Assembly (NCBI GenBank): GCA_965261735.1 | Contig: OZ253470.1 | Location: 1,553,479-1,617,478, forward strand | Source: Alphaproteobacteria bacterium | GTDB lineage: Bacteria; Pseudomonadota; Alphaproteobacteria; SHVV01 | Direction: 5' to 3' | Length of the DNA: 64,000 nucleotides | Shown: piece after piece, positions 14,086 to 61,426 of the stretch | Layout: every line of letters begins with the position of its first letter | Numbering within the stretch: position 1 is the first letter of the stretch | Translations under genes and position numbers: made by a program | Notes under the pieces: model-generated | Seen by the model: only the letters and a program-made list of their open reading frames with translations | Told to the model about the DNA's origin: nothing | The model's database searches: none

Positions 14086-14125
14086 TCTGAAGCTTTCGTT
14101 CTCCTTCCACTCGAGAACATTCTCC

Positions 14126-15230
14126 CTTTCCTATCCGGTTTACACCCACACCCACTAGGGCTAGAATGGGCGCAACCCGGATATAGGGGAGCGCGCCATG
14201 GATGTTCTCGACCGCGCCGATCTCCCATTCCCGCATTCGCTACCCGAGTTCCAGCGACTTTTCCCCGATGATGCGGCCTGCGCCGCCTACCTGGAGAAAG
14301 CCCGCTGGGGAGACGGCTTTGCCTGCCCGCACTGCGGCACGGCGGGAGAGCCGTTCCACTTTGAAAACCGCCCTGGCGTCCTGCGCTGCCGCAAGTGCCG
14401 CCAGAACACCGGGCTGACGGTGGGAACAGTGATGGAGCGTAGCCACACTCCGCTGAACGTCTGGTTCTGGGCCGCTTATCTGGTCGCCAGTCAGACGCCC
14501 GGCATGTCCGCCGTGCAGTTTCAGCGGCAACTTGGTCTTTCGCGCTACGAGACGGCCTTTCAAATTCTCCACAAGCTCCGCTCGGGCATGGTGCGGCCCA
14601 ACCAAGACAGGATCGGTGGACAGCCCAAGAACCATGTTGAGGTGGACGAAACCTGGGTTGGCGGGCGAACGCGTGGGGAAGGCCGTGGTGTTCACCACAA
14701 GGTTCCCGTCTCCTGTGCCATCGAGGTGCGTCATCGAAAGCCGGGCACCAAGCTCGACAACCGGAAAGACGGACGCTATGCCGGACGCGTTCGGCTCGCC
14801 GTCGTGCTCGACCGTAGCGCCGAGTCGCTCTGTGGGTTCGTCGAGAGCACCGTCGCGCCGCGATCGCTGATCGTTACTGACGATTGGAGCGGCTATGCTG
14901 GCCTCGGTAAGCGCGGCTATGAGCACTTCGCTGTTGCCGAGTGTGGTGATCCAGAGGTTGCCGAGCAATACCTGCCGATCATCCATCTGGTTTTCGCCAA
15001 CCTGAAGACGTGGCTGATCGATATCCACCACGGCGTTAGCCACCAGCACCTACAAGCCTACCTCAACGAGTTCACCTTCCGCTTCAACAGGCGGTTCTAC
15101 CCGTTCAACGCCTTCCGCTCATTGCTCGGCATCGCGGGCGACACCTCTGCTCCAACCTATGCCGAGCTTTACTCGGGAGAGTGGCGGCACCCTACATGTA
15201 GCGGTCATGGGCGTTAACCGGATAGGCAAG
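14126..15230 (+). mobile_element. IS1595-family insertion sequence, copy 1 (1105 bp)
   Basis: Imperfect 22-bp terminal IRs (CTTtCCTATCCGGTTTACACCC ... GGGCGTTAACCGGATAGGCAAG); identical termini on all copies; no clean TSD at this copy. Confidence 0.85.
14198..15217 (+). CDS. IS1595-family transposase (N-terminal zinc ribbon plus DDE domain)
   Basis: 339 aa; CPHCG...CRKCRQ zinc ribbon followed by a DDE_Tnp_IS1595-like core. Confidence 0.85.
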   Translation: MDVLDRADLPFPHSLPEFQRLFPDDAACAAYLEKARWGDGFACPHCGTAGEPFHFENRPGVLRCRKCRQNTGLTVGTVMERSHTPLNVWFWAAYLVASQTPGMSAVQFQRQLGLSRYETAFQILHKLRSGMVRPNQDRIGGQPKNHVEVDETWVGGRTRGEGRGVHHKVPVSCAIEVRHRKPGTKLDNRKDGRYAGRVRLAVVLDRSAESLCGFVESTVAPRSLIVTDDWSGYAGLGKRGYEHFAVAECGDPEVAEQYLPIIHLVFANLKTWLIDIHHGVSHQHLQAYLNEFTFRFNRRFYPFNAFRSLLGIAGDTSAPTYAELYSGEWRHPTCSGHGR

Positions 15231-21356: not shown

Positions 21357-22461
21357 CTTGCCTATCCGGTTAACGCCCATGACCGCTACATGTAGGGTGC
21401 CGCCACTCTCCCGAGTAAAGCTCGGCATAGGTTGGAGCAGAGGTGTCGCCCGCGATGCCGAGCAATGAGCGGAAGGCGTTGAACGGGTAGAACCGCCTGT
21501 TGAAGCGGAAGGTGAACTCGTTGAGGTAGGCTTGTAGGTGCTGGTGGCTAACGCCGTGGTGGATACCGATCAGCCACGTCTTCAGGTTGGCGAAAACCAG
21601 ATGGATGATCGGCAGGTATTGCTCGGCAACCTCTGGATCACCACACTCGGCAACAGCGAAGTGCTCATAGCCGCGCTTACCGAGGCCAGCATAGCCGCTC
21701 CAATCGTCAGTAACGATCAGCGATCGCGGCGCGACGGTGCTCTCGACGAACCCACAGAGCGACTCGGCGCTACGGTCGAGCACGACGGCGAGCCGAACGC
21801 GTCCGGCATAGCGTCCGTCTTTCCGGTTGTCGAGCTTGGTGCCCGGCTTTCGATGACGCACCTCGATGGCACAGGAGACGGGAACCTTGTGGTGAACACC
21901 ACGGCCTTCCCCACGCGTTCGCCCGCCAACCCAGGTTTCGTCCACCTCAACATGGTTCTTGGGCTGTCCACCGATCCTGTCTTGGTTGGGCCGCACCATG
22001 CCCGAGCGGAGCTTGTGGAGAATTTGAAAGGCCGTCTCGTAGCGCGAAAGACCAAGTTGCCGCTGAAACTGCACGGCGGACATGCCGGGCGTCTGACTGG
22101 CGACCAGATAAGCGGCCCAGAACCAGACGTTCAGCGGAGTGTGGCTACGCTCCATCACTGTTCCCACCGTCAGCCCGGTGTTCTGGCGGCACTTGCGGCA
22201 GCGCAGGACGCCAGGGCGGTTTTCAAAGTGGAACGGCTCTCCCGCCGTGCCGCAGTGCGGGCAGGCAAAGCCGTCTCCCCAGCGGGCTTTCTCCAGGTAG
22301 GCGGCGCAGGCCGCATCATCGGGGAAAAGTCGCTGGAACTCGGGTAGCGAATGCGGGAATGGGAGATCGGCGCGGTCGAGAACATCCATGGCGCGCTCCC
22401 CTATATCCGGGTTGCGCCCATTCTAGCCCTAGTGGGTGTGGGTGTAAACCGGATAGGCAAG
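21357..22461 (-). mobile_element. IS1595-family IS, copy 2 (1105 bp) with an 8-bp TSD
   Basis: Perfect 8-bp direct repeat GATCAGTC at 21349-21356 and 22462-22469 flanking the identical termini. Confidence 0.9.
21370..22389 (-). CDS. IS1595-family transposase
   Basis: 339 aa, nearly identical to copy 1. Confidence 0.85.
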   Translation of the reverse strand: MDVLDRADLPFPHSLPEFQRLFPDDAACAAYLEKARWGDGFACPHCGTAGEPFHFENRPGVLRCRKCRQNTGLTVGTVMERSHTPLNVWFWAAYLVASQTPGMSAVQFQRQLGLSRYETAFQILHKLRSGMVRPNQDRIGGQPKNHVEVDETWVGGRTRGEGRGVHHKVPVSCAIEVRHRKPGTKLDNRKDGRYAGRVRLAVVLDRSAESLCGFVESTVAPRSLIVTDDWSGYAGLGKRGYEHFAVAECGDPEVAEQYLPIIHLVFANLKTWLIGIHHGVSHQHLQAYLNEFTFRFNRRFYPFNAFRSLLGIAGDTSAPTYAELYSGEWRHPTCSGHGR

Positions 22462-23046
22462 GATCAGTCATTCAAGGCTAAGTTGCTGGGCACGGACCGG
22501 CTGCGGGAGATGGCAAATCCAGGGCAGCTCGGACGCTCGTATGGTGACCACTTCGCCGCTGGATACCCGAAGAGCAGCTTCGAGCACCTGCGCCAGGCGG
22601 GCGGGGAAGGATCGGGCGTCGATACCTTTCTGTTGCTTGAAGACAGACTGGACCTCCGCATCCGCGTTGAAGCGACGCTGAGCCCTCTCTTCGACCGCGA
22701 CGTAGTGCTGGACTGGGATTCCGGTAGCCTCGTGCCGAAGGCGGCGATGCGGAAAAGTGGAGAGTCTTATCGCCTAGATCGTGACGAGTGTCACGGCATT
22801 AAGGAGCTCTTGGTTCTTCTCACGCACTTGTACGATGAGCGGCACGACTACCTGATCGTCGATGAGCCGGAACTCAATTTGCATCCGCAGTATCAAACGT
22901 TCTTCATGCAGGAGGTGCGCAAGGTTACCCAAAAGCAGGATGCGAGCGGAACCGCGAAAATCGTCTTCCTGATCACGCACTCGCCGTTCATACTGGTTTT
23001 GCGGTCGCACGATGACGTCAAGTCCGTGATATCGTTCGATCTCTAA
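22462..23046 (+). pseudogene. C-terminal half of an ABC/AAA_21-type ATPase (OLD / PARIS AriA-like); N-terminus with Walker A missing
   Basis: Walker B LIVDEPELNLHP, Q/H-loop-like FLITHSP; begins exactly at the IS copy 2 TSD. Confidence 0.55.
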
Positions 23047-23085
23047 TATTCCGTCCCCAGGCAGGTTGTCCGTAGGAGCCCCGAC

Positions 23086-23457
23086 GTGGCTTCGGAGTTG
23101 GTCGCGACCGGGCGACTGAACGCGCACCACAAACAGCTCTTCTTCTCGGACGATCCCATATTCGTGGAAGGGCACCACGACGCGCTGATGATCGAGTCTC
23201 TAATGGAGGCACGCGGCGTCTCGGCCGCAGCTGCCGGTAGCTGCATCATCGAATGTGGGGGCGTAGAGGAAGTAACCCACTACCTGAAGCTCTGGCAAGC
23301 GCTAGGGAAGAGGGCTCATTTCGTCTATGACCTTGACAGCCTCTTCAAAGGCCGACTTCGGTCGTGTATTGGCAATGACAACATCGATACCCTGACCGCT
23401 GAAGGCGACGAAAGGCGTAGCAATGCTTGCCCTTCAGGTGGGCTGCTGGGCTGGTGA
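23086..23457 (+). CDS. Toprim-domain protein fragment (OLD C-terminal / DUF4435-like)
   Basis: Toprim signature FVEGHHD ... YDLDSLF (E and DxD) only 123 aa long; 40 bp after the ATPase fragment. Confidence 0.45.
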   Translation: MASELVATGRLNAHHKQLFFSDDPIFVEGHHDALMIESLMEARGVSAAAAGSCIIECGGVEEVTHYLKLWQALGKRAHFVYDLDSLFKGRLRSCIGNDNIDTLTAEGDERRSNACPSGGLLGW

Positions 23458-23672: not shown

Positions 23673-23993
23673 CTATTCGATCGAAACCTGCGTTTTGGCT
23701 TCCTCGAGCAGGCGGGTCATCTCGTGACGCACTTTGTGCTCGTCCGTTGCGATCCCTTTGTCGGTCAGGTCGCCGAGCACCTTCCGCAACACATCGGCAT
23801 CTCCCGGCTCTTCAAAATCGGCGATCACGACCTGCTTGGCGTAGGCTTCGGCATCCGCGCCTGAAATGCCCATTTGCTCCGCTGCCCACAGGCCGAGCAG
23901 CTTGTTGCGCCGCGCGATGGTCTTGAACTGGAACTCCTGATCATGCGCGAACTTGGCTTCGGCGGCTGTTTTGCGGTCATCAAAGGCGGTCAT
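23673..23993 (-). CDS. DUF1476 protein, a homolog of the alphaproteobacterial F1Fo-ATPase inhibitor zeta subunit
   Basis: 106 aa; MTAFDDRKTAAEAKFAHDQEF...ARRNKLLGLWAAEQ is closely similar to the Paracoccus zeta subunit. Confidence 0.75.
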   Translation of the reverse strand: MTAFDDRKTAAEAKFAHDQEFQFKTIARRNKLLGLWAAEQMGISGADAEAYAKQVVIADFEEPGDADVLRKVLGDLTDKGIATDEHKVRHEMTRLLEEAKTQVSIE

Positions 23994-24346
23994 CGATTGG
24001 GCTCCTCAACTTCAGAAGACGGGGTCCACGCTTTATCCGCCTTTTCATTCTTGTATGCGATGAAGCCCGACGCACCCTTGCCTTTGGCGCGGCGTAATGT
24101 GTACCCATGATTGCCGAGTTTGAACTTCGGGTCATTCTCAAAGCCCGCGAGAGCCTCAACGATCTTCATCGCCACGGGATCTGGCTTGCTCTTGGCTTGT
24201 GAGGCAGCCTCCCGCGCCAGCCACCTTGCGAAGACCTCTTCGGCGAGGTCGTCGCCGACAGATTTTCGAAGCGCGTTCAATTTTCTCACCAGACCTTTTG
24301 TGAATCCGGTCTCATCGATAGCCATTTCCTGAACCTCGCATTTCAA
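23990..24346 (-). CDS. hypothetical protein co-transcribed with the DUF1476 gene
   Basis: 118-aa ORF; ATGA overlap with the downstream gene. Confidence 0.45.
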   Translation of the reverse strand: MKCEVQEMAIDETGFTKGLVRKLNALRKSVGDDLAEEVFARWLAREAASQAKSKPDPVAMKIVEALAGFENDPKFKLGNHGYTLRRAKGKGASGFIAYKNEKADKAWTPSSEVEEPNR

Positions 24347-24428
24347 GCCTCTTATACTGTCGCGTGGCCCGGCTGGTGCAACTGATTTCCACTGTTACAC
24401 GCCAGCTTGCCGTTTCCCTTTTCACGTC

Positions 24429-24441
24429 GTTCTACTTGAAC
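24429..24441. promoter_or_regulatory. palindrome GTTCtacttGAAC about 82 bp upstream of umuD-like; candidate LexA/SOS-type operator
   Basis: Perfect GTTC-N5-GAAC dyad in the umuD promoter region; not the canonical alphaproteobacterial GTTC-N7-GTTC box. Confidence 0.3.
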
Positions 24442-24522
24442 CGATGTGCTGGATGTATTCTACCGCCAAACCAAGTTAATCGCCGCCGGCGCCGATAAGG
24501 GAAATTTACAGGCCATTGCCTG

Positions 24523-24807
24523 ATGTTCACCGTAGTCACCCCCACGACGAGTCTTAGCCTCGACGATCATTTCATAAAGCGTCCTGCGGCGACATTCTTT
24601 GTCACGGTCGAGGGCGGCGGCATGGCCGAACACGGGATCCTTGCCGGCGATACCCTGATCGTCGACCGTTCACGTACGCCAGGCACGGGTTCCATCGTCA
24701 TCGCGGTAATCGTGGGCGAGTTGACCACCCGTCCGTTCGCCGCCCTCGATGGCGAGGAGGCCCACGTCTGGGGCGTCGTCGCCGGGGTGGTGCGGAGCCT
24801 GCCATGA
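24523..24807 (+). CDS. umuD: UmuD-like (S24 LexA-fold) protein lacking the N-terminal arm and the Ser/Lys catalytic dyad
   Basis: 94 aa; aligns to the UmuD C-domain but has GGGM in place of GDSM and no Lys at the K97-equivalent position; 4-bp overlap with umuC. Confidence 0.7.
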   Translation: MFTVVTPTTSLSLDDHFIKRPAATFFVTVEGGGMAEHGILAGDTLIVDRSRTPGTGSIVIAVIVGELTTRPFAALDGEEAHVWGVVAGVVRSLP

Positions 24808-26022
24808 GCATCTACGGACTGGCCGATTGCAATAACTTCTTCGTCTCCTGCGAGCGGGTCTTCCGGCCAGCCCTCGAAGGCCGTCCCGCCGTGGTCCTGT
24901 CGTCGAACGACGGCTGCATCGTCGCGCGCAGCGACGAGGCGAAGGCGCTCGGCGTCAAGATGGCGCAGCCGGCGTTCCAGGCGAAAGACCTCATCGAGAG
25001 GCATAGCATTGCCGTCATCAGCGGCAACCTCCAGTTCTATACCGACATGAGCAACCGGGTGATGCAGGTCTTCGGGGAACTGGTCCCGGCGGTCTCGCGG
25101 GAATACCGCAAGAGCTCACGGCATTCTGCCAGGACCTGAAACGCACCGTGCGGCAATGGACCGGGCTGCCGATCAGCATCGGCATCGCCGAGACCAAGAC
25201 CCTTGCCAAGATCGCCAACCGCCTCGCGAAGACCTCCGCCAAAACGGACGGCGTTCTCGATCTCACCGGAACGCGCTGGCGCGACAAGGCGCTGGCGTCA
25301 ACGGAAGTCGGCGATGTCTGGGGCATCGGCAGGCAGTACGCCAAGAAACTCAACCGCAACGGTGTCATGACGGCCCTCGATCTGACGAGCCGTCCCGATG
25401 GCTGGGTGCGCAGGGCGTCGGCGGGCTGAAGACGGTGCGGGAATTGCGCGGCGAAGACTGTATAGGCTTCGACGACATGCCCCAGCCCAAGCAAACGACG
25501 ATGGTTTCGCGATCCTTCGGCACGGAAGTGCGCGACTACGACGAGTTGACCAATGCGATCGCCATGTTCGCGACCGATGCGGCACGATCGATCCGCAGGG
25601 CCAATCTCGTCTCAACCTCGGTGAGCGTGTTCATCGAGACCAACCGTTTCGGCAAGAGCCCGCACCACGCTCCCTCCTGCTCGGAAGCACTGTCGCCCGC
25701 GACCAATAACACGAAGCATGTCGTGCGAGCCGCGCTGGCCGCTCTGAAGCACATCTACCGCGAGGGGCTGGCGTACAAACGCGCCGGGGTGATGCTGCTC
25801 GACCTCGTAGAAGCCGGCCGGGCGCCAATCTCGCTATTCGATACGCAGGATCCAAGGGACGACAAGCTGATCGAAGCGTTCGACGCCATCAACGACCGGC
25901 TGGGGCCGGGAGCGATCCAATTCGGCCCCGCGGCGCAGGCCGCGGCCTGGCGATCGAGCAGCGCGTTCCGCTCGCCCAACTACACAACCCGTTGGGAAGA
26001 CATCCCGAAGGTTAAAACCTGA
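24804..26022 (+). pseudogene. umuC: Y-family DNA polymerase V subunit UmuC, disrupted by about 2 frameshifts/deletion
   Basis: N-terminus MSIYGLADCNNFFVSCERVF in frame 0 to 25139, continues in another frame (25148-25429) and a third (to 26022); about 14 codons (EIYSIDEAFLDL region) deleted near 25095. Confidence 0.8.
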
Positions 26023-26123: not shown

Positions 26124-26796
26124 ATGAGGCCGGGGCCTTTCGGGCGGCGGGAACGAGGGCGAGAGAACGGCTCTCGCCGCCCCGCCGGGAGCCCTCGATT
26201 GACCCATTCGAAGACGGCGGCGATCGGGACGGCGATCGCGGTAATCGCGGCGCTGTTTCTCGCCGGTTACATGACCGGCGATCATGGGGTGAAGCGGATG
26301 GACGGCGCGCGGGCTCGGCGACATCGCCGGGGGGGGGGGGCCCAGGTCCACAGCCGGAAGCGGCAAGCACGGGATCGCGGCCATGGTAGCTGGAACCATG
26401 GCGGGGCTGTTTCCCGGTAGCGGGATCGGCGCCTCGCTCGACAAGCTGTGTGCGGCCCGCACACGGCAAGCGGCGCTGGAGACCGGTCCAAGCGTGGTGC
26501 CCTTGCGCTGGCGCAATCGCAACACCGATAACGCAGGGGCGATTACACCGACCCGCACCTACAGATCGGCCGCCGGAATCTACTGCAGGGAATACCAACT
26601 CACCGCGACCGCCGGCGGGCGCACCGGGCAAGCCCACGGCAGCGGCTGCCGCCAGCCCGACGGCTCGTGGCGAGTATCGAACCAGCACCGCGCCTGCCCA
26701 TGGCGACCTGCCCGGCGCTGGAACGGCGGCGATCGATTCAACTGTCCTTGCACGGTCCAGCCGTTCCGGCTCCATCCGGTTCCGTTACGCCGGTGA
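26124..26796 (+). CDS. putative membrane / glycine-zipper surface-antigen-like protein split across a G12 tract
   Basis: TM helix (AAIGTAIAVIAALFLAGY) in frame 0; glycine-zipper and YCREY...GSGC...DGSW surface-antigen-like region in frame +1 after the poly-G tract. Confidence 0.35.
26329..26340 (+). repeat. homopolymeric G12 tract
   Basis: 12 consecutive G at the frame junction of the putative surface-antigen-like gene. Confidence 0.9.
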
Positions 26797-26887
26797 GAGC
26801 CAGAGCTTGAGCCGAAGGCGGGCGAGGGCGGATGCCGAAGAGGGTGTCCCCGCCCGGTTCCGCATTCACGCAATCCCGGAGACCGAC

Positions 26888-28334
26888 ATGCACGACCCCG
26901 AACGCGATATCCGCGACATCCCGCTGTCCCAACTCGAACTCTCGCCCGGCAATGTGCGCAAGACGCCGGCCGATGCTTCAGCCTTCACCGAGCTCAAGGC
27001 CTCGATCGCTGCCCACGGGTTGCTCGAGAACCTGATTGCCCGCGCCATGGAACCCGGCACCGATTATGTCGTGCGCTACGCGGTGATCGCCGGCGGACGG
27101 CGGCTTGCCGTGATGCAGGCGCTGGCCGCCGAAGGCGCGCTGGACGAGGACCACCCCGTGCCCTGCCGCATGATCGGAAGCATCGTGGCGGCCGAAGAAG
27201 TTTCGCTGGCCGAGAACAGTGTCCGCGCCGCCATGCACACGGCCGATCAGGTCGAGGCATTCCGCCGCCTGGCCGATGCGGGCAGCACGGCGGGCGCCAT
27301 CGCGGCGCGTTTCGGGGTCTCGGAGCGCACCGTGGAGAAGCGCCTGCGGCTCGGCAACGCCGCACCAGTGCTGCTCGAGGCCTACCGAGCAGGCGAAATC
27401 GATCTGGACACATTGATGGCCTTCGCCGTCACCACGGATCATGCGCGCCAGAACGCGGTCTGGGCGGCGGTGAGCCAACAGGGCTACCGTCCCGGCGCCT
27501 GGCAGATCAAGCGCCTGCTGACCGAGGACCGGGTTCCGGCCACGTCCGCCATCGCGCGTTTCGTCGGCATCGAGGCTTACGAGGCGGCGGGCGGCAGGAT
27601 CGATCGCGATCTGTTCGCCGAGGAGGACGAGCGGGGGATCTGGTTCGACGATCCCGAACTCTTGAACAAGCTCGCCATGGACAGCCTCCAGGTCGCGGCG
27701 AGGGAACTGGAGACGCGCTGGAAATGGGCCGAGGCGCGGCTCGACGTGGACTGGAGCGCCACCGCGAGCTTCGGGCGGGTGCGTCCGCAACCGGCCGAGC
27801 CGACAGACGGGGAGAAGGCCGAGATCGAACGTTTGAGGACCCGCAACGACGAACTCGCCAACATGGACGACGACGGCTGGACCGAAGAATTGGTCGAGGA
27901 AGCCGATGCCAACGAGACGCGCCTGGACGAGATCGAGGCCGCGATCGACGCCCGCGCGGTCTACCGGCGCGAGGACATCGCTATCGCCGGGTGCATCGCC
28001 ACCGTCGGCAACGACGGCGAGCTCAAGCTGATCCAGGGCCTGGTCAGGCCCGAGGACATGCCCGCGCGCGAACCCAACGATGCGAACATGGCCGGACAAG
28101 ACGATACCGGCGACGGGGAGAGCGCCAGTTCCAGCATCGAGGCTCCCACACTTGCGGCTCCCCCCGCTTCGCCCGGCGAAGGACAAGTTCGCCGGTATCG
28201 AGCCGGACGCCTTGCGCCCGTCGGGGCGCTTCGATCCCAACCTCCGCAGGCAGGTCAAGCGCGACGCCGATGCGCTCACGGCGCAATTCGCGGGCTACTT
28301 CGCGCCCGCCGCCGCGGACAGGGAAGCAGCCTGA
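26888..28334 (+). pseudogene. ParB/Srx-like nuclease domain protein (ICE/plasmid type), frameshifted at a C6 tract
   Basis: ParB N-domain (IPLSQLELSPGNVRK, VIAGGRRLAV) plus HTH; the frame changes at CCCCCC (28168-28173); the C-terminus continues in the frame ending at 28334. Confidence 0.7.
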
Positions 28335-29686
28335 TGGCCGCCCATGCCCGCTCGGAATCCGCCCGGCGCGTCAGCGACTGCATGACCACGCTGCTGCGCG
28401 ACCAGCCCTTCTTCGGCAGCCTGGCGTTAAGGCTGCCGATCCGCCCCGACGAAACCCGCGAGACCCTGGCCAGCGATGGCAAGGACATCCGCTACGCGCC
28501 CCAGTGGGTGGCGGACACCGATGCCGATCAGATCAAGACCGCGCTGGCGCGCGTGGTCCTGGCCTGCGCGTTGAAGCATCATACGCGGCGGGGCAGCCGC
28601 GACCCGGAGCGCTGGCAACGGGCCTCGCAGTTGGTCACCCACGGCCTGCTGCGGGACGCAGGTTTTGCACTGCCGCCCGGCGCAGAGGCCTGGGACGCCA
28701 TCAGCGCCGAACAGGCCTACGACCGGCTTCCGGAACCGCCGGACGATGCAGAGAATCCGGGCGATGCGTCTTCATCCAGCGATGTGGATGACAGTGGCAG
28801 CGCTGCCGGCCCTCGATGCGGTGACGGCGACGAAGACCAAAGCGCTCCGCCAAATCCAACCGATGACAACAGTCCGCAAGAGCAGGACGCGCCGGGATCG
28901 GGCAGCAATAGCGCGGGCTCGAAACCATCCGGGCAGACGCCCGCCAGCCACGACCCTTGCGGCACCGGCGAGGTCATGGACGCGGACGAGCGTTGCGACG
29001 CCACCGGCCAGTCCGGCGAATCGCCTCTGGACACACCCGCCGAGGAGCAGGCGTGGGACGAAGCCATGCACCAGGCCGCCAATCTCGCGCGGGCGCAAGG
29101 CAACGCGCCTGGCGCCGTCGAGGAGACGATCCGGCAAGCGCATCGCAGCATCCTCGACTGGCGGTCGCTGTTGCGCCGCTACATGACCGATGCCGCGCGC
29201 CGCGATGATAGCTGGAGCGTCCCCAACCGGCGTTTCATCGACAGCGGCCTCTATCTGCCCTCGATGCACTCGGAGGGCATCGATGCCATCGCCATCATCA
29301 TCGACACCTCCGGATCGCTGCCGGGCGAAACGCTGGCCCTGTTCTGGGCCGAGGTCCGCGAAATCACCGCCGAACTGCAGCCGGACAGCATCTATGTCCT
29401 TCAGGTCGACGCGGTGCTGCAGGACGCAGCCCGGTATCCCGCCGGGGAACTACCGGACAGCATCACGATCAAGGGACGCGGCGGGACCGATTTCCGGCCA
29501 GGCTTCGCATGGCTTCATGAGCATGGGGTGCGCCCAAGCTGCTGCCTCTACCTGACCGACATGGAATGCGACAGCTACCCCGAGGCCGAGCCTGGCTATC
29601 CTGTAATTTATTGCAACTGGGGGCCGCCGCCGGGGACAAGGAACCGCGAGCCCTGGGGCGAGCGCATCGACATCGGACCGGCATGA
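28334..29686 (+). CDS. DUF2201-family protein (putative metallopeptidase-like N-domain plus VWA-like C-domain)
   Basis: 450 aa; the ATG overlaps the ParB-like stop (TGATG); VWA-like IIIDTSGS motif in the C-terminal domain. Confidence 0.65.
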   Translation: MAAHARSESARRVSDCMTTLLRDQPFFGSLALRLPIRPDETRETLASDGKDIRYAPQWVADTDADQIKTALARVVLACALKHHTRRGSRDPERWQRASQLVTHGLLRDAGFALPPGAEAWDAISAEQAYDRLPEPPDDAENPGDASSSSDVDDSGSAAGPRCGDGDEDQSAPPNPTDDNSPQEQDAPGSGSNSAGSKPSGQTPASHDPCGTGEVMDADERCDATGQSGESPLDTPAEEQAWDEAMHQAANLARAQGNAPGAVEETIRQAHRSILDWRSLLRRYMTDAARRDDSWSVPNRRFIDSGLYLPSMHSEGIDAIAIIIDTSGSLPGETLALFWAEVREITAELQPDSIYVLQVDAVLQDAARYPAGELPDSITIKGRGGTDFRPGFAWLHEHGVRPSCCLYLTDMECDSYPEAEPGYPVIYCNWGPPPGTRNREPWGERIDIGPA

Positions 29687-30318: not shown

Positions 30319-33300
30319 ATGCTCGACGCCCAACCGGCGGCGACCGCGCCCGCGCGTCCGCCTGCCATCCAGCAGCTTCAACCATCCCCAGCGATTGCCG
30401 ATACCACAGGCGTTCGCTCCAAGCCTGCCGCGTTGCTGGCCGCGGCAACCGCTCTGCTTCTTGAGCTGGAGGTGGGCCGGGCGCTCGATCCAAAGACCTT
30501 GCGCGAAGCCATGAGCGCGGCCTTCGGCGCCAATGACACGCAAGGAGCCTGGGTCTGGAAGGACGCCTACGAAGCGGCCGAAGCCGCGATGGTGCTGTTC
30601 ATCCAGCGCTACGGCCGCCTCATGCGCCGCGAGGCGGGCGCCGGACCCGGATCGGCCGCCGCCATGCTCGCCATGCTGGAGACCCTGGCGGCGCTGGAGC
30701 CGTCCCAGACACGGCGGTCGGAGGAACAGCTTGCCCTGCAACAGTTCTCCACTCCCTTGCCGCTCGCCTACGCCGCGCTGCAGGCCGCCGCCATCCGGCC
30801 CGGCGACATCGTGCTGGAACCCTCGGCCGGCACCGGCATGCTCGCCGTCATGGCCGAATGCGCCCTCGGCAAGCGCACCGATGACGCGCGATCGGGGGAT
30901 CCCCTGCACCTGAACGAGATTGCCGCCGTTCGCGCCGGGTTGCTTGCGCGATTGTTCCCAGATTCGCCGGTCACCCGTCATAACGCCGAGTCCATCGCCG
31001 ATTATCTGCCGGACCTGCGTCCCACCGTGGTGTTGATGAACCCGCCCTTTTCGGCGAGCCCCGGGGTCCAGCGCATCCGCCATGACGCGGATTTGCGCCA
31101 TCTTCATTCCGCCTTCTCCATGCTCCCGGCGGGCGGGCGGCTGGTGGCCATCACGTCGGCCGGCTGCATCCCGGGCGATACCGCCTGGAGCCGCGCCTTC
31201 GAGCGCCTCGATCCACCGCCGCGCACCGTCTTTTCCAACGCCATCGACGGGCGCGCCTACGCACGGCGCGGCACGACCTTCGATACCCGGCTGACCGTAA
31301 TCGACCGTGATCCCGCCAATGCCCAGGGCGTTCCGGTCGACGCGCGGGAATCCGTCCCCACCGCTGCCGGGTTGCTTGCAGCTATCGCCGCCAATGTGCC
31401 GCAGCGGCAGGCGGTCGTGCCAATAGCCGCGGCCCTTGTTCCGGCCGGCGATCTGTTCGGCCATGCCGCTGCACGGCCGGCCCCGCGTAAGTGGGCAGCG
31501 GCCACCGCGCCCAACACCAGATCCGCAGACCCGCAAGTCCGCGATTGGGGGCCGGTGGCCGAACTCGACTACGAAATTTCACCCGCCAACCCTGAAGGCA
31601 AGGTAAGCGAACCGGAGGCCACCCATGCCGGCGTCTACGAGCCCTGGTGTCCCCGGACCGCGCGCATTCCCGGCGCCTGCGAACATCCGACGCCGCTGGT
31701 GCAATCCGCCGCCATGGCGGCGGTGCCCCATCCCGTGCCGTCGTACCGCCCGATGCTGCCCGTGCATGTCGTGACGGACGAACTGCTGTCCGACGCCCAG
31801 CTCGAAAGCGTCATCCTCGCCGGTCAGGCGCATGAGCGCCATCTTTCCGCGCACTACCGCATCGGCGAGGGGTGGGAGACCGTCGCGCGTGTCGCCGACA
31901 ATGAAGATGACAACAGCGATGACGGCAAAAACGACGAGACAATTCACTCTGATCCCGAACCCGCCACCGATGCTACCGGCGATGGCGAAGCCCTGTCCGC
32001 GCCGGTGCGTTTCCGGCGCGGCTGGATGCTGGGCGACGGCACCGGCTGCGGCAAGGGCCGCCAGGTCGCCGCCATCATTCTCGACCACTGGCTGCGCGGC
32101 CGCCGCCGGGCGCTGTGGCTGTCCGCCTCCGACAAGCTGCTGGAAGACGCGCTCCGCGACTGGGCCGCGGTCGGCGGCAGCGAGGCCGACCTCATCCCAT
32201 TGGGTAAGTTCCGCCAGGGGGCCGAAATTCCACAAGAGGCCGGTATCCTGTTCGCCACCTATGCAACCTTGCGCTCGCCCGCCCGCCAGGGAAAGCGCTC
32301 GCGCCTCGAACAGATCGTGCGCTGGCTCGCCGATGGCATGGACGAAGACTCCCGCCATGCCTTTGGCGGCGGGACCGCGCGGCGATACCGCCCCCTCGCA
32401 GCAGGGGCGCGCCGGATTGCGTTTGCAGAACGCCTTGCCGGATGCCCGCATCCTCTATGTCTCCGCCACCGGTGCCACCACGGTGCCCGGACTTGCCTAT
32501 GCGCGGCGCCTCGGCCTGTGGAGCGGCGCGGATTCGGGCGGCGAGACGCCCTTCAAGCAACGCACCGATTTCGTCACCGCCATGGAGGCCGGCGGGGTCG
32601 CGGCGATGGAGGTGGTGGCCCGCGATCTGAAGGCCCTCGGGCTCTACCAGGCCCGTGCGCTCAGCTATGACGGGGTCGAGGTCGAGCTGCTCGAACATCC
32701 GCTGACGCCCGAGCAGCGGCGCATCTACGACGCCTATGCCGGGGCCTTCAAGGTGATCCACCGCAATATAGAAGACGCCCTGAAAGCCACCGGCATCATG
32801 GAAGGCGATGCCACCCTGAACAAGAACGCCAAGTCCGCCGCGCTGTCGGCTTTCGAGGGCGCGAAGCAGCGTTTCTTCGGCCATCTCCTGACCGCAATGA
32901 AATGTCCCTCGCTGATCCGGTTCGTGGAGGCCGATCTCGAGGCAGGTCATGCCTGCGTCATCCAGCTGGTCTCCACCGGCGAGGCTTTGCTGGACCGGCG
33001 CATCGCCGATATCCCCGTCTCGGAATGGGACGATATCTCCGTCGACCTGACGCCGAGGGAGGCGTGCCTTGAATATCTGGCGCACGCATTCCCTGTGCAG
33101 TTGCAGGAGCCATTCACCGACGACGAGGGCAATCTCATGAGCCGGCCCGTGACCGACGCCGAGGGCAACCCGGTCTTGTGCCAGGAAGCAGTCGCTGCCC
33201 GCGACTCTCTGATCGAGAAGCTCGCGGCGTTGCCGCCGGTGCAGGCGGCGCTCGACCAGATCCTGCACCGTTTCGGCGGCAAGGCCGTCGCCGAGGTCAC

Positions 33301-34855
33301 CGGCCGCTCGCGCAGGGTCCTGCGCATCGCCGATGCGTCAAGCGAGCGCCTGGCGCTGCGCAACCGTCCTGCGTCGGCCAACCTCGCCGAGACCGCCGCC
33401 TTCATGGCGGGCGACAAACGCATCCTCGTCTTCTCCATGGCCGGCGGCACCGGGCGCAGCTATCACGCCGACCTTGGCTGCGGCAACACTGCGCGGCGTA
33501 TCCATTACCTGCTGGAGCCGGGCTGGCGGGCCGACCAGGCGATCCAGGGACTGGGCCGCACCCATCGAACGCACCAGGCCTCGGCCCCCTTGTTCCGCCC
33601 CGTCACCACGGATGTGAAGGGCGAGCGGCGGTTCATTGCCACCATCGCGCGGCGTCTCGACAGCCTGGGCGCCATCACCCGGGGACAGCGGGACAGCCAG
33701 ACGGCCATGGGCGGCGGCGATGCCACCCTGTTCCGGGCCAGCGACAATCTGGAGAGCCCCTACGCCAAGGTGGCGCTGCGTCAGTTCTACATCGCGCTGT
33801 GGCGCGGCAACATTGCGGGCTGGTCCATGGACCGTTTCGAGGACGCCACCGGGCTGAAGTTGATCTGGGAAGGCTCGCTCAAGGAAGACCTGCCGCCGAT
33901 GCCCCGGTTCCTCAACCGGCTGCTGGCCCTGCCCATCGCCGAGCAGAACGAGTTGTTCGCCGAGCTGGAAACCCGCATCGAGGCCAACATCGAACAGGCC
34001 ATCGAGGCCGGGACCCACGAGCAGGGTGTCGAGACCATCCGGGCCGACTCCCTCACCGTGGCCTCGCGCGAGACGGTTCACGTTCATGAAGCCTCGGGCG
34101 CCGCCACCGAGCTTGTCGAGATCGTCCGCCGCGACCGGCTCGTGCCGCTGGCGGCCGACGATGCGCTCGCCATGCGGGACGGGCGTCCCGTCGTCAACAC
34201 CCGCTCGAAGCGCGCCGCCGTGGTCCTGCCCGCGCCGTCGCGGATGTTCGAGGACGGCGGGGTCGAGGCCCGGGTCCGCCTGGTCCGTCCCGCCGCCCGC
34301 GAGCCCATGGCCGCGGCCGAGCTTGCCGCCTCGAACTGGGAGGATTCCGGCGAAGATCGCTGGCGCGTGTTGTGGGATGCGGAAATCGAGGGGCTGCCCA
34401 GCCACACCGAATCCCGCCTGTGGCTGGTCACCGGCCTGCTGCTGCCCATCTGGGACCGATTGCCGGGCGAGAACATGCGGGTGCGCCGGCTTGCGACCGA
34501 TGCCGGGGAAAGCCTGCTCGGCCGGGTTCTGACGCCCGAGCAGGCGCACGCCTTCCGCGACGCCTTCGGACTGGCCGGCGGACCGGTCATGAGCCCGGCC
34601 GAGATGCACGAGGCGATTCTGATCCGCGGCGCGTCCTTCGATCTCGCCAACGGCTGGCGGCTTGCAAGGCGGCGCCTGATGGGCGCCGGCCGCGTCGAGA
34701 TCGAAGGACCGGCCGATAACGACCTCGCGGCGCTCAAGCGCATGGGGTGCGCCACCGAGATCGTCTCGTGGCGCACCCGTGTGTTCGTGCCCCAATACAT
34801 CGACCTCGGCCGCATCCTCGATCGCTGGCCGCTCGCGGATGCGAACCCGGCGTAA
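30319..34855 (+). pseudogene. large N6-adenine DNA methyltransferase / SNF2 (strawberry-notch-like) helicase fusion, frameshifted in helicase motif II
   Basis: MTase motif I (LEPSAGTGMLAV) and IV (NPPF); helicase Walker A GDGTGCGKGRQVA; frame switch near 32335-32375, where DEAH...APSQQGRAGLRLQ is split between frames; helicase C-domain and conserved C-terminal tail present. Confidence 0.75.
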
Positions 34856-53640: not shown

Positions 53641-53663
53641 TTCCTATCTCGCTCTACTTCTTC

Positions 53664-54768
53664 CTTACCTATCCGGTTTACACCCACACCCACTAGGGCT
53701 AGGATGGGCGCAACCCGGATATAGGGGAGCGCGCCATGGATGTTCTCGACCGCGCCGGTCTCCCATTCCCGCATTCGCTACCCGAGTTCCAGCGACTTTT
53801 CCCCGATGATGCGGCCTGCGCCGCCTACCTGGAGAAAGCCCGCTGGGGAGACGGCTTTGCCTGCCCGCACTGCGGCACGGCGGGAGAGCCGTTCCACTTT
53901 GAAAACCGCCCTGGCGTCCTGCGCTGCCGCAAGTGCCGCCAGAACACCGGGCTGACGGTGGGAACAGTGATGGAGCGTAGCCACACTCCGCTGAACGTCT
54001 GGTTCTGGGCCGCTTATCTGGTCGCCAGTCAGACGCCCGGCATGTCCGCCGTGCAGTTTCAGCGGCAACTTGGTCTTTCGCGCTACGAGACGGCCTTTCA
54101 AATTCTCCACAAGCTCCGCTCGGGCATGGTGCGGCCCAACCAAGACAGGATCGGTGGACAGCCCAAGAACCATGTTGAGGTGGACGAAACCTGGGTTGGC
54201 GGGCGAACGCGTGGGGAAGGCCGTGGTGTTCACCACAAGGTTCCCGTCTCCTGTGCCATCGAGGTGCGTCATCGAAAGCCGGGCACCAAGCTCGACAACC
54301 GGAAAGACGGACGCTATGCCGGACGCGTTCGGCTCGCCGTCGTGCTCGACCGTAGCGCCGAGTCGCTCTGTGGGTTCGTCGAGAGCACCGTCGCGCCGCG
54401 ATCGCTGATCGTTACTGACGATTGGAGCGGCTATGCTGGCCTCGGGAAGCGCGGCTATGAGCACTTCGCTGTTGCCGAGTGTGGTGATCCAGAGGTTGCC
54501 GAGCAATACCTGCCGATCATCCATCTGGTTTTCGCCAACCTGAAGACGTGGCTGATCGGTATCCACCACGGCGTTAGCCACCAGCACCTACAAGCCTACC
54601 TCAACGAGTTCACCTTCCGCTTCAACAGGCGGTTCTACCCGTTCAACGCCTTCCGCTCATTGCTCGGCATCGCGGGCGACACCTCTGCTCCAACCTATGC
54701 CGAGCTTTACTCGGGAGAGTGGCGGCACCCTACATGTAGCGGTCATGGGCGTTAACCGGATAGGCAAG
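53664..54768 (+). mobile_element. IS1595-family IS, copy 3 (1105 bp)
   Basis: Same termini as the other copies; flanks ACTTCTTC / GTTTCTTC (6/8), consistent with a degraded 8-bp TSD. Confidence 0.85.
53736..54755 (+). CDS. IS1595-family transposase
   Basis: 339 aa, nearly identical to copies 1 and 2. Confidence 0.85.
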   Translation: MDVLDRAGLPFPHSLPEFQRLFPDDAACAAYLEKARWGDGFACPHCGTAGEPFHFENRPGVLRCRKCRQNTGLTVGTVMERSHTPLNVWFWAAYLVASQTPGMSAVQFQRQLGLSRYETAFQILHKLRSGMVRPNQDRIGGQPKNHVEVDETWVGGRTRGEGRGVHHKVPVSCAIEVRHRKPGTKLDNRKDGRYAGRVRLAVVLDRSAESLCGFVESTVAPRSLIVTDDWSGYAGLGKRGYEHFAVAECGDPEVAEQYLPIIHLVFANLKTWLIGIHHGVSHQHLQAYLNEFTFRFNRRFYPFNAFRSLLGIAGDTSAPTYAELYSGEWRHPTCSGHGR

Positions 54769-56292: not shown

Positions 56293-56673
56293 TCACAAGC
56301 TGGAATAGTTGCGGAGCCTAGCGCGGATTTCTACCTGGGGCAGCCGGCAGCGAGGATGTTCGGCGATTCGCCGGAGGCCCTCGGTCAAGGCGTCCTGGTC
56401 AAGCATCCGATTCCCATGCAGGTGATCGACCAGCCATAGGACGCCGTGGCATTCGACGTTTTCTTCGAGTGCCAGGGCGCGCAGCGAGCCGTCTCCGGAA
56501 AGCAGCGTCCACGAACGTGTCTTGGAGAGGGCGAGCGCGAAGCTGTCGGGAAGCGAAAGACTGCGCCGCGCGCGGCGGTACGCCAGCGCGAGGGTGACTC
56601 CTGCGCCATCCAGTTCTTCCAAGCGGAGCCCCAGGTCGATTAGTGTGGGCCCACCGTGATCCCTGAGTTCGCG
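56293..56673 (-). pseudogene. PIN-domain (VapC-like) gene fragment, N-terminally truncated by the IS1595 fragment
   Basis: ...ALALSKTRSWTLLSGDGSLRALALEENVECHGVLWLVDHL resembles PIN-domain C-terminal strands; the upstream part is replaced by the IS end. Confidence 0.35.
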
Positions 56674-56892
56674 CTTGCCTATCCGGTTAACGCCCATGAC
56701 CGCTACATGTAGGGTGCCGCCACTCTCCCGAGTAAAGCTCGGCATAGGTTGGAGCAGAGGTGTCGCCCGCGATGCCGAGCAATGAGCGGAAGGCGTTGAA
56801 CGGGTAGAACCGCCTGTTGAAGCGGAAGGTGAACTCGTTGAGGTAGGCTTGTAGGTGCTGGTGGCTAACGTCGTGGTGGATACCGATCAGCC
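56674..56892 (-). mobile_element. IS1595-family IS fragment (right-end 219 bp only)
   Basis: Identical to the right end of the full copies, encoding the last 68 aa of the transposase; identity breaks at about 56892. Confidence 0.85.
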
Positions 56893-59897: not shown

Positions 59898-60396
59898 CTC
59901 GGGGATAGCGGCGAGTGGAGCGCCGGGAAGAGCGGCCGGCGGGGTGCGCCGCCCACAGTCATCATCCGGGAGTTTGCCGGCGCGGCAAACTCCTCCTTGT
60001 CCCCGATCATAGTCAACCCGTCGAAGCGATGGCAAATTTGACGCAGTCGCCGACCGGGGATGAGGAATGGGCTGTCCAGAGAGCCGGTTACATGACACTC
60101 GAATCCATTGCTCCGGTGAGCGACATTGACTCCATAGAGCTGCCCGCAGTGGGAGACTGAGCGTCCGAGCCCAGACCGCCGGAAACCTTGTAGAGTGCAA
60201 CGCTCCCACACCACTCCCGGGGACACGATCCCGTCGTATGGCGAGACAAAGTCAGCGGACACTAGAAATCTACAGCCAGCATAGGGAACTTCGAAGAATA
60301 TTGCCGGTGACCTGTCCTCTTCATCGCCCTCTCGCCCAAGAATCCAATCAATCCAGGCAACCACACTCGGCGTACCCATAAGGGCGAAGTTGGAAC

Positions 60397-61426
60397 CTTG
60401 CCTATCCGGTTTACACCCACACCCACTAGGGCTAGAATGGGCGCAACCCGGATATAGGGGAGCGCGCCATGGATGTTCTCGACCGCGCCGATCTCCCATT
60501 CCCGCATTCGCTACCCGAGTTCCAGCGACTTTTCCCCGATGATGCGGCCTGCGCCGCCTACCTGGAGAAAGCCCGCTGGGGAGACGGCTTTGCCTGCCCG
60601 CACTGCGGCACGGCGGGAGAGCCGTTCCACTTTGAAAACCGCCCTGGCGTCCTGCGCTGCCGCAAGTGCCGCCAGAACACCGGGCTGACGGTGGGAACAG
60701 TGATGGAGCGTAGCCACACTCCGCTGAACGTCTGGTTCTGGGCCGCTTATCTGGTCGCCAGTCAGACGCCCGGCATGTCCGCCGTGCAGTTTCAGCGGCA
60801 ACTTGGTCTTTCGCGCTACGAGACGGCCTTTCAAATTCTCCACAAGCTCCGCTCGGGCATGGTGCGGCCCAACCAAGACAGGATCGGTGGACAGCCCAAG
60901 AACCATGTTGAGGTGGACGAAACCTGGGTTGGCGGGCGAACGCGTGGGGAAGGCCGTGGTGTTCACCACAAGGTTCCCGTCTCCTGTGCCATCGACGTCG
61001 TGCTCGACCGTAGCGCCGAGTCGCTCTGTGGGTTCGTCGAGAGCACCGTCGCGCCAGGATCGCTGATCGTTACTGACGATTGGAGCGGCTATGCTGGCCT
61101 CGGTAAGCGCGGCTATGAGCACTTCGCTGTTGCCGAGTGTGGTGATCCAGAGGTTGCCGAGCAATACCTGCCGATCATCCATCTGGTTTTCGCCAACCTG
61201 AAGACGTGGCTGATCGGTATCCACCACGGCGTTAGCCACCAGCACCTACAAGCCTACCTCAACGAGTTCACCTTCCGCTTCAACAGGCGGTTCTACCCGT
61301 TCAACGCCTTCCGCTCATTGCTCGGCATCGCGGGCGACACCTCTGCTCCAACCTATGCCGAGCTTTACTCGGGAGAGTGGCGGCACCCTACATGTAGCGG
61401 TCATGGGCGTTAACCGGATAGGCAAG
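60397..61426 (+). mobile_element. IS1595-family IS, copy 4 (1030 bp, 75-bp internal deletion) with an 8-bp TSD
   Basis: Perfect direct repeat GTTGGAAC at 60389-60396 and 61427-61434. Confidence 0.9.
60469..61413 (+). CDS. IS1595-family transposase with an in-frame 25-aa deletion
   Basis: 314 aa; lacks EVRHRKPGTKLDNRKDGRYAGRVRLAV relative to the other copies. Confidence 0.8.
   Translation: MDVLDRADLPFPHSLPEFQRLFPDDAACAAYLEKARWGDGFACPHCGTAGEPFHFENRPGVLRCRKCRQNTGLTVGTVMERSHTPLNVWFWAAYLVASQTPGMSAVQFQRQLGLSRYETAFQILHKLRSGMVRPNQDRIGGQPKNHVEVDETWVGGRTRGEGRGVHHKVPVSCAIDVVLDRSAESLCGFVESTVAPGSLIVTDDWSGYAGLGKRGYEHFAVAECGDPEVAEQYLPIIHLVFANLKTWLIGIHHGVSHQHLQAYLNEFTFRFNRRFYPFNAFRSLLGIAGDTSAPTYAELYSGEWRHPTCSGHGR

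Follow-up and report, generated by a model that had tools for sequence, protein, structure and literature searches.

We describe a family of 94-residue proteins that are best explained, with a probability of roughly 0.7, as minimal, protease-dead accessory subunits of the UmuD' type for Pol V-like polymerases; on the same reading, the member studied here is most likely an orphaned relic. The explanation draws on sequence comparison, a predicted structure and analogy with E. coli Pol V. The gene lies in a 64,000-nucleotide stretch of an alphaproteobacterial contig (OZ253470.1), the whole of which we call the window:

24523..24807, plus strand: short umuD'-like gene (ATG start, 94 codons, 94 aa; from the ORF list, Pfam S24 and the UmuD alignment)

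Results

A UmuD-like protein with a degenerate active site

The product consists of a 10-residue N-terminal arm (MFTVVTPTTS), a helix (LSLDDHFIK), a degenerate active site made up of GGGM (G33, the equivalent of Ser60) and TTR (R70, the equivalent of Lys97), and a C-terminal strand (VWGVVAGVVRSLP). The initial annotation, made from the sequence alone, had called it UmuD-like, and database searches agree. The protein matches PF00717 (Peptidase_S24) at 42.4 bits (cutoff 23.3, E=6.5e-11, profile positions 20-85 of 116) and the PHROG 'UmuD-like protein' at E=3e-21, and a search of the PDB with the family profile placed E. coli UmuD/UmuD' at the top (E=2.4e-17), with LexA well behind (about 1e-8). 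By these scores its homology to UmuD is far above chance. Against the NCBIfam model of the autoproteolytic Pol V subunit (NF007621) it scores 71.1 bits, under the cutoff of 110.

MAFFT and HMMER alignments agree on the numbering, residue n of the family corresponding to residue n+27 of UmuD. M1 falls on UmuD S28, so that the protein begins 3 residues inside the N-terminus of UmuD' (G25); the arm residues 1-27 and the Cys/Ala-Gly cleavage site are missing. The replacement of the nucleophilic serine, already recognised in the initial annotation, is confirmed by the alignment, which places G33 at Ser60 (GGGM in the family, GDSM in UmuD). The equivalent of Lys97 had been reported absent; instead, the position of this general base is taken by R70 (GELTTR in the family, GEFTVK in UmuD). 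Both residues of the Ser-Lys dyad are thus replaced, and Gly33 and Arg70 are each conserved in at least 90% of the family. Judged from the alignment, autocleavage is impossible, with the cleavage site gone, glycine at the nucleophile position and arginine at that of the general base. We also observed an internal deletion that had been overlooked: the 17 residues 99-115 of UmuD (LQLRPTVQLIPMNSAYS), right after the Lys97 position, have no counterpart in the short protein.

The umuC of the window is a pseudogene

The short gene is followed by a broken umuC:

24804..26022, plus strand: umuC pseudogene in three frame pieces (UmuC 1-99, 109-215 and 209-419; tblastn with the intact 419-aa UmuC of locus L004)
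25092..25093, plus strand: junction of a 34-bp deletion in umuC, removing VEKYSIDECFLD (DNA alignment with L004 and L001-L003)
25412..25413, plus strand: junction of a 7-bp deletion (AGGAGAT) in umuC, common to the window and L003 only

Pfam IMS, IMS_C and DUF4113 were all found on the fragments. The reference for the deletions was L004, in which the short gene is 95% identical and umuC is intact; L001-L003, which encode the identical 94-aa protein, are three independent metagenome contigs and share the 34-bp deletion with the window. The initial annotation had described umuC as frameshifted. It is indeed broken, but by real deletions of 34 and 7 bp rather than by simple frameshifts, and since these are not homopolymer errors, the window umuC is a genuine pseudogene in this lineage. 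The lost VEKYSIDECFLD includes the SIDE motif, which carries the catalytic Asp-Glu of Y-family polymerases, and the short gene of the window is therefore orphaned.

It is thus necessary to separate the family from this copy. That the family is functional while the window copy is a dead relic, intact only because the loss of umuC was recent, is compatible with the best explanation, is specific to the window and strikes us as probable. The 34-bp deletion took the catalytic SIDE and a second deletion of 7 bp followed; neighbouring genes are broken too and IS1595 copies are abundant. The short gene differs from its counterpart in L004, the nearest intact operon, at 5 non-synonymous and 2 synonymous positions, counts too few to test but compatible with relaxed constraint. 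Position 64 (UmuD D91), otherwise acidic (D/E) in the family, is Val in the window, but this Val also occurs in the distant member P0089. Further points against a dead copy are the identical protein in four independent contigs and the fact that an orphan UmuD' can serve a chromosomal UmuC, as P1 HumD does. On balance, the window copy has most likely been orphaned and survives intact as a relic on a mobile element in decay. The product had been proposed to be a constitutive, non-cleavable UmuD'-like subunit: its UmuD' size and its predicted inability to be cleaved stand, but with the operon dead nothing constitutive is likely to operate in the window.

A degraded mobile-element neighbourhood

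The surrounding genes include ParB_N, DUF2201, a Strawberry-notch-type helicase, RecD2 and an OLD-like ATPase, and the neighbourhood is ICE- or plasmid-like and heavily degraded. Its main features are:

14120-15230, plus strand: IS1595-family element
21357-22462, minus strand: IS1595-family element
53658-54768, plus strand: IS1595-family element
60396-61426, plus strand: IS1595-family element
56673-56892, minus strand: fragment of the IS1595-family element
26450-29686, plus strand: single 1078-aa ORF with ParB_N, DUF2201 metallopeptidase and VWA-like domains
30319-32670 and 31832-34855, plus strand: Strawberry-notch-type helicase (AAA_34 and Helicase_C_4) in two overlapping ORFs

The split helicase is probably a frameshift pseudogene. 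The IS1595-family element is about 1.1 kb long, encodes a 339-aa transposase and occurs at least four times, in copies more than 99% identical, in addition to the fragment. The copy at 21357-22462 has taken away about 22 codons from the start of an OLD-like AAA_21/TOPRIM gene (22408-23454); the related contig L001 has this gene intact, at 381 aa. Relatives of the 1078-aa ORF are ParB_N proteins of 797-817 aa that start near the equivalent of 26888, and a run of 12 G (26329-26340) lies just upstream of this ORF, within the remains of what is in relatives a 191-aa minus-strand gene.

In relatives the short gene is coupled to an intact umuC

The initial annotation had suggested asking whether intact operons in relatives also carry a dyad-less UmuD. 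They do: among 40 loci from species-representative genomes, all of them MAGs, the short gene stands beside an uninterrupted, full-length umuC (about 419 aa) in 20, spanning 62-98% identity. The two genes are joined by a characteristic overlap, kept in 16/16 diverse loci:

24804..24807, plus strand: ATGA overlap of the short umuD stop and the umuC start (translational coupling)

The operon arrangement of a UmuD'-type Pol V subunit is therefore found in the relatives, the window's own umuC being the pseudogene described above. Intact umuC genes encode IMS, IMS_C and DUF4113 domains and score 407 bits against the NCBIfam UmuC model. Their products retain DCNNFF, SIDE, an ISLF clamp-like motif, a RecA-NT-like segment (DKLIEAFDAINDRLGPGTIQFG) and the C-terminal extension DUF4113, and they end in a conserved tail, YTT(R/E)WxxIPxVK(T/A).

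In about half of the genome copies umuC is damaged, that is truncated, frameshifted or interrupted (L008, L018, L020-L025, L027, L030-L033, L038 and L041), which may reflect either decaying multi-copy elements or errors of long-read assembly. The contexts of the module also differ. Close alphaproteobacterial copies share zeta-like, orf118, orf191 and ParB genes, divergent copies adjoin Tn3, GmrSD or housekeeping genes, and ICE genes lie beside others. Since the flanks vary between loci, the conserved unit is a two-gene module of short umuD and umuC.

Predicted structure and a putative mode of action

An AlphaFold2 model based on an 81-sequence alignment has a mean pLDDT of 76 and a pTM of 0.67, with confident core strands and low confidence for residues 1-20 (pLDDT 47-57). 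Foldseek against the PDB assigned the model to the S24 beta-fold, returning UmuD' (1AY9), UmuD on the RecA filament (8GMT) and 1UMU first and LexA C-terminal domains next.

What such a protein might do is suggested by an AlphaFold model of E. coli Pol V. There, the last four residues of UmuC form a strand on one UmuD', and the C-terminal carboxylate of UmuC bonds S36, T71 and K73 of UmuD', with a salt bridge to E69; the arm of the other UmuD' enters UmuC close to its active site, between palm and little finger (PMC11791011). UmuD' lacking its arm forms dimers yet is inactive (PMC11791011). In UmuD numbering the four clamp residues S36, T71, K73 and E69 are S60, T95, K97 and E93, i.e. the former active-site cleft. 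The family retains E66, T/S68, a guanidinium at position 70 and a strongly conserved free N-terminus, MFTVV. These retained residues fit a protein that would keep the structural jobs of UmuD' (dimer, tail clamp and arm) and drop the protease job.

By analogy with the E. coli Pol V models, the short protein would be translated directly at the 'activated' size, with no cleavage needed, and would dimerise via its retained helix and C-terminal strand. One protomer would clamp the UmuC C-terminal tail (...YTTRWxDIPxVKT) in the former active-site cleft, with Arg70, Thr68 and Glu66 replacing the contacts of Lys97, Thr95 and Glu93. The other would insert its N-terminal pentapeptide MFTVV into UmuC, an equivalent role being assumed here for a sequence unrelated to GFPSPA. 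The ClpXP-tethering and Lon signals of E. coli UmuD lie at residues 9-12, 15-18 and 26-29, all of which are missing from the short protein. The polymerase would thus be free of control by UmuD cleavage and by arm-borne Lon/ClpXP degrons, and its control would lie in transcription and translational coupling only, probably together with RecA binding to UmuC.

The RecA contacts merit separate consideration. In the cryo-EM structure of UmuD on RecA*, F203 of the RecA L2 loop enters a pocket formed by Y52, L54, F94 and F18 of the partner arm, and D91 and E93 face a basic patch (PMC9926225). In the family the corresponding positions hold F25, V27, L67, D/E64 (Val in the window) and E66, and F18 is gone. 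The UmuC of the relatives carries DUF4113 and a segment resembling the RecA-NT motif of UmuC (described in PMC6511836). Since these UmuC features and most RecA*-contact residues are kept, RecA-dependent assembly of the mutasome is probably retained. The initial annotation had suggested an escape from RecA*-dependent control, which would hold for the cleavage step but probably not for this assembly.

The same contacts allow another reading, in which the short protein is a decoy for the RecA* groove that damps LexA/UmuD cleavage and SOS on behalf of the mobile element, in the manner of PsiB or DinI. Most of the residues that touch the RecA L2 loop and the basic groove have been retained, and the ICE- and plasmid-type neighbourhoods are ones in which anti-SOS genes are common. 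However, a decoy would hardly account for a gene that is strictly operon-linked and ATGA-coupled to umuC wherever the locus is intact, nor for the co-conserved UmuC tail; moreover, F18, part of the RecA pocket, is missing, and orphan copies are seen only as decayed ones. We consider a decoy unlikely.

The short form is conserved at low dN/dS ratios

Turning back to the family as accessory subunits of UmuC, a search of 5.8 billion protein sequences gave 296 matches, and the best 120 of the 296 have identities of 62-98% and, with few exceptions, a length of exactly 94 aa. Their sources name them only as 'DNA polymerase V' (JGI) or 'hypothetical protein' (NCBI). Members occur in uncultured Alphaproteobacteria (often 3-5 copies per genome), Micropepsaceae, Rhodospirillaceae, Terriglobia, Kiritimatiellia and others. 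Of 1.84 billion cluster representatives searched by profile, only 9 clusters fell below 1e-30, which makes the family itself a narrow one. Among plasmids, megablast of the region gave no match, and tblastn against annotated plasmids and phages gave only homologues of less than 60% identity, which were canonical UmuD or HumD-like.

In the 81-sequence alignment M1, V5, L11, D14, F26, G31, S50, G65, W83, G88 and R91 are invariant, and F2, T3, G33, M34, E66, L67 and R70 are at least 90% conserved. The presence of G33 and R70 in this list means that the replacement residues are themselves conserved. Nei-Gojobori analysis of 27 distinct genes gave pairwise median dN/dS values of 0.15-0.22 in each dS bin from 0.05 to 3. 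Given the constant length of 94 aa, a dN/dS of about 0.15 and the coupling to an intact umuC in relatives, the short dyad-less form is, to judge from these comparisons, selected and not accidental.

These data also bear on the idea that the whole family is a functionless, degenerating umuD remnant carried along with umuC. The active site is destroyed, two segments are gone and many copies, that of the window included, lie in IS-rich decaying elements with a broken umuC. Nevertheless, a remnant would not be expected to show a fixed length and an invariant N-terminus, a dN/dS of about 0.15 out to saturated dS, ATGA coupling kept across Alphaproteobacteria, Terriglobia and Kiritimatiellia, or conserved Gly33 and Arg70. 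We regard this idea as very improbable and, on the sequence data, as largely refuted by the signal of selection. In two loci, L015 and L039, the short gene itself is damaged.

The start codon and the upstream region

Upstream of the short gene the window contains the following:

24496..24498, plus strand: in-frame TAA stop, 9 codons upstream of the ATG
24347..24522, no strand: divergent intergenic region, with the palindrome GTTCTACTTGAAC at 24429-24441
23990..24346, minus strand: divergent gene orf118 (111-118 aa), overlapping the zeta-type gene by 4 nt
23673-23993, minus strand: zeta-type gene (PF07345, ATPase inhibitor subunit zeta)

The TAA rules out an N-terminal extension in the window, and together with the start at UmuD S28 it upholds the original description of a missing cleavable arm. 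An in-frame extension restoring that arm, which the initial annotation had named as the finding that would overturn it, is absent, and no UmuD-like sequence was found in the other two frames at the locus. The notion that the real product is longer, with upstream starts (the 103-119 aa forms of some gene callers) restoring the arm, can cite database entries of 117-119 aa for near-identical genes but deserves practically no weight: the stop codon refutes it in the window, the in-frame peptide upstream of the ATG varies or is stop-closed among relatives and a 1-bp indel shifts its frame, MFTVV is kept from the ATG onwards at 62% overall identity, and Ser60, Lys97 and the internal segment are beyond rescue by any extension.

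The palindrome (GTTC-N5-GAAC) shows no enrichment in the window, and its conservation is limited to close relatives. The LexA box GTTC-N7-GTTC, an alphaproteobacterial motif that may not be the host's, is absent near the short gene, and a scan of 24200-24700 found no sigma-70-like promoter or terminator. The divergent orf118 is found beside the short umuD in every close alphaproteobacterial copy, at identities as low as 77%, and has no match in Pfam, NCBIfam, PHROGs or the PDB. We considered orf118 or the zeta-like gene as a conserved third gene of the module and rejected both, as they are syntenic in the close alphaproteobacterial copies only and not at divergent loci.

Discussion

Comparison with known systems

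The best match in both sequence and fold is E. coli UmuD' (1AY9, 1UMU, 1I4V). The two proteins share the S24 fold, are about equal in size, are encoded immediately upstream of umuC, and have similar helices (IDLN..LIQ in UmuD', LSLD..FIK in the short protein) and C-terminal strands (VFGVV..V and VWGVV..V). They differ in that UmuD' arises by cleavage whereas the short protein is made directly, and in the changes Ser60 to Gly and Lys97 to Arg and the deletion of UmuD 99-115. In addition, the arm of the short protein is 3 residues shorter and unrelated in sequence (MFTVV, not GFPSPA).

A pre-activated UmuD' is already known from phage P1, whose HumD is a naturally pre-truncated UmuD' homologue that complements UmuD' (PMC7092418). 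Like the short protein, HumD (and also N15 gp26 and phiKO2 gp23) is pre-truncated and does not need RecA*-mediated processing. However, HumD begins with the canonical arm (MGFPSPAADY in the P1 record), keeps the Ser, the Lys and the internal segment, is 129 aa long, and has a LexA site upstream and no adjacent umuC. Indeed, the short protein scores only 39.9 bits against the NCBIfam HumD model (NF051876; cutoff 120). The Ser has also been lost in phiKO2 gp23, a HumD-like orphan (L045:1459-1842) that has ANTC where UmuD has GDSM, keeps the Lys, and adjoins dinI and an annotated LexA site. Pre-activation is thus not new in principle, given the HumD precedent; the present family is a new and more radical variant.

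MucA, RumA, ImpA and SamA resemble the short protein as accessory subunits of Pol V-like enzymes on mobile elements, near ParB-type and anti-defence genes; unlike it, they are full-length, cleavable and dyad-bearing. The YolD/YqjX small subunits of Gram-positive UmuC-like polymerases are likewise small and non-proteolytic, have an SH3-like beta core and an N-terminal arm, and are encoded upstream of a Y-family polymerase, but according to PMC6511836 and PMC12926913 they form an evolutionarily distinct family. By contrast, the short protein is, by sequence, clearly derived from S24/UmuD.

Other short UmuD-like proteins

Many further short S24 proteins (88-130 aa) also came up in the profile search; they align end to end across the deletion. 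We surveyed the dyad and the internal segment in 128 non-family representatives of at least 85 aa. An intact Ser/Lys pair was absent in 21/27 of those without the segment and in 21/101 of those with it (Fisher exact test, odds ratio 13, p=7e-8), in a set that is biased by the query profile and was aligned automatically. Where Lys is replaced, Arg is the commonest substitute. Since the segment and catalysis tend to be lost together, these sequences suggest that UmuD 99-115 serves self-cleavage, and that non-proteolytic UmuD-like proteins are a wider, undescribed phenomenon. Our literature search found no paper describing dyad-less short UmuD-like proteins; a 2012 review of TLS contains nothing on dyad-less or truncated UmuD, and the available parts of the 2019 and 2026 Y-family surveys make no mention of such UmuD variants.

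Among individual sequences outside the window (P0139-P0265), most of those without UmuD 99-115 have also lost Ser60 and/or Lys97, and several start a few residues before GFPSPA. A longer relative from an Ignavibacteriales MAG (L043:3980-4372) has GFASPA, keeps the Ser (GDSL) and a long internal segment, and carries Arg-Arg in place of Lys97-Lys98; it could represent an intermediate state.

Implications

We tentatively propose, as a reading less likely than not, that the family and the wider segment-less, dyad-less UmuD-like proteins form a distinct 'post-proteolytic' class of Pol V accessory subunit. In such a class the cleft of the former active site would now serve solely to clamp the C-terminal carboxylate of UmuC, with Lys changed to Arg and Ser to Gly, and UmuD 99-115, whose only use would be in self-cleavage, would have been lost. 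If this is correct, Pol V would be uncoupled both from the RecA*-timed cleavage checkpoint and from arm-dependent Lon/ClpXP turnover, and the class would be a natural experiment in which the structural part played by UmuD stands apart from its functions as protease and timer.

For the window itself the implications are more modest, as its operon is dead and its short gene most likely a relic. In E. coli, mutagenesis by Pol V is restrained because UmuD is cleaved late, with a timing set by RecA*, and because its arm carries proteolysis signals. An operon dispensing with cleavage and arm degrons would have simpler control, through transcription and probably RecA binding to UmuC only, and such control would govern the mutagenic polymerases that mobile elements carry in marine and soil bacteria. 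The family is also a natural test case for the recent computational Pol V model, in which the UmuC tail lies in the UmuD' cleft and the arm at the polymerase active site, and its conservation points to Arg70, Glu66, Thr/Ser68, Gly33 and MFTVV as targets for mutagenesis.
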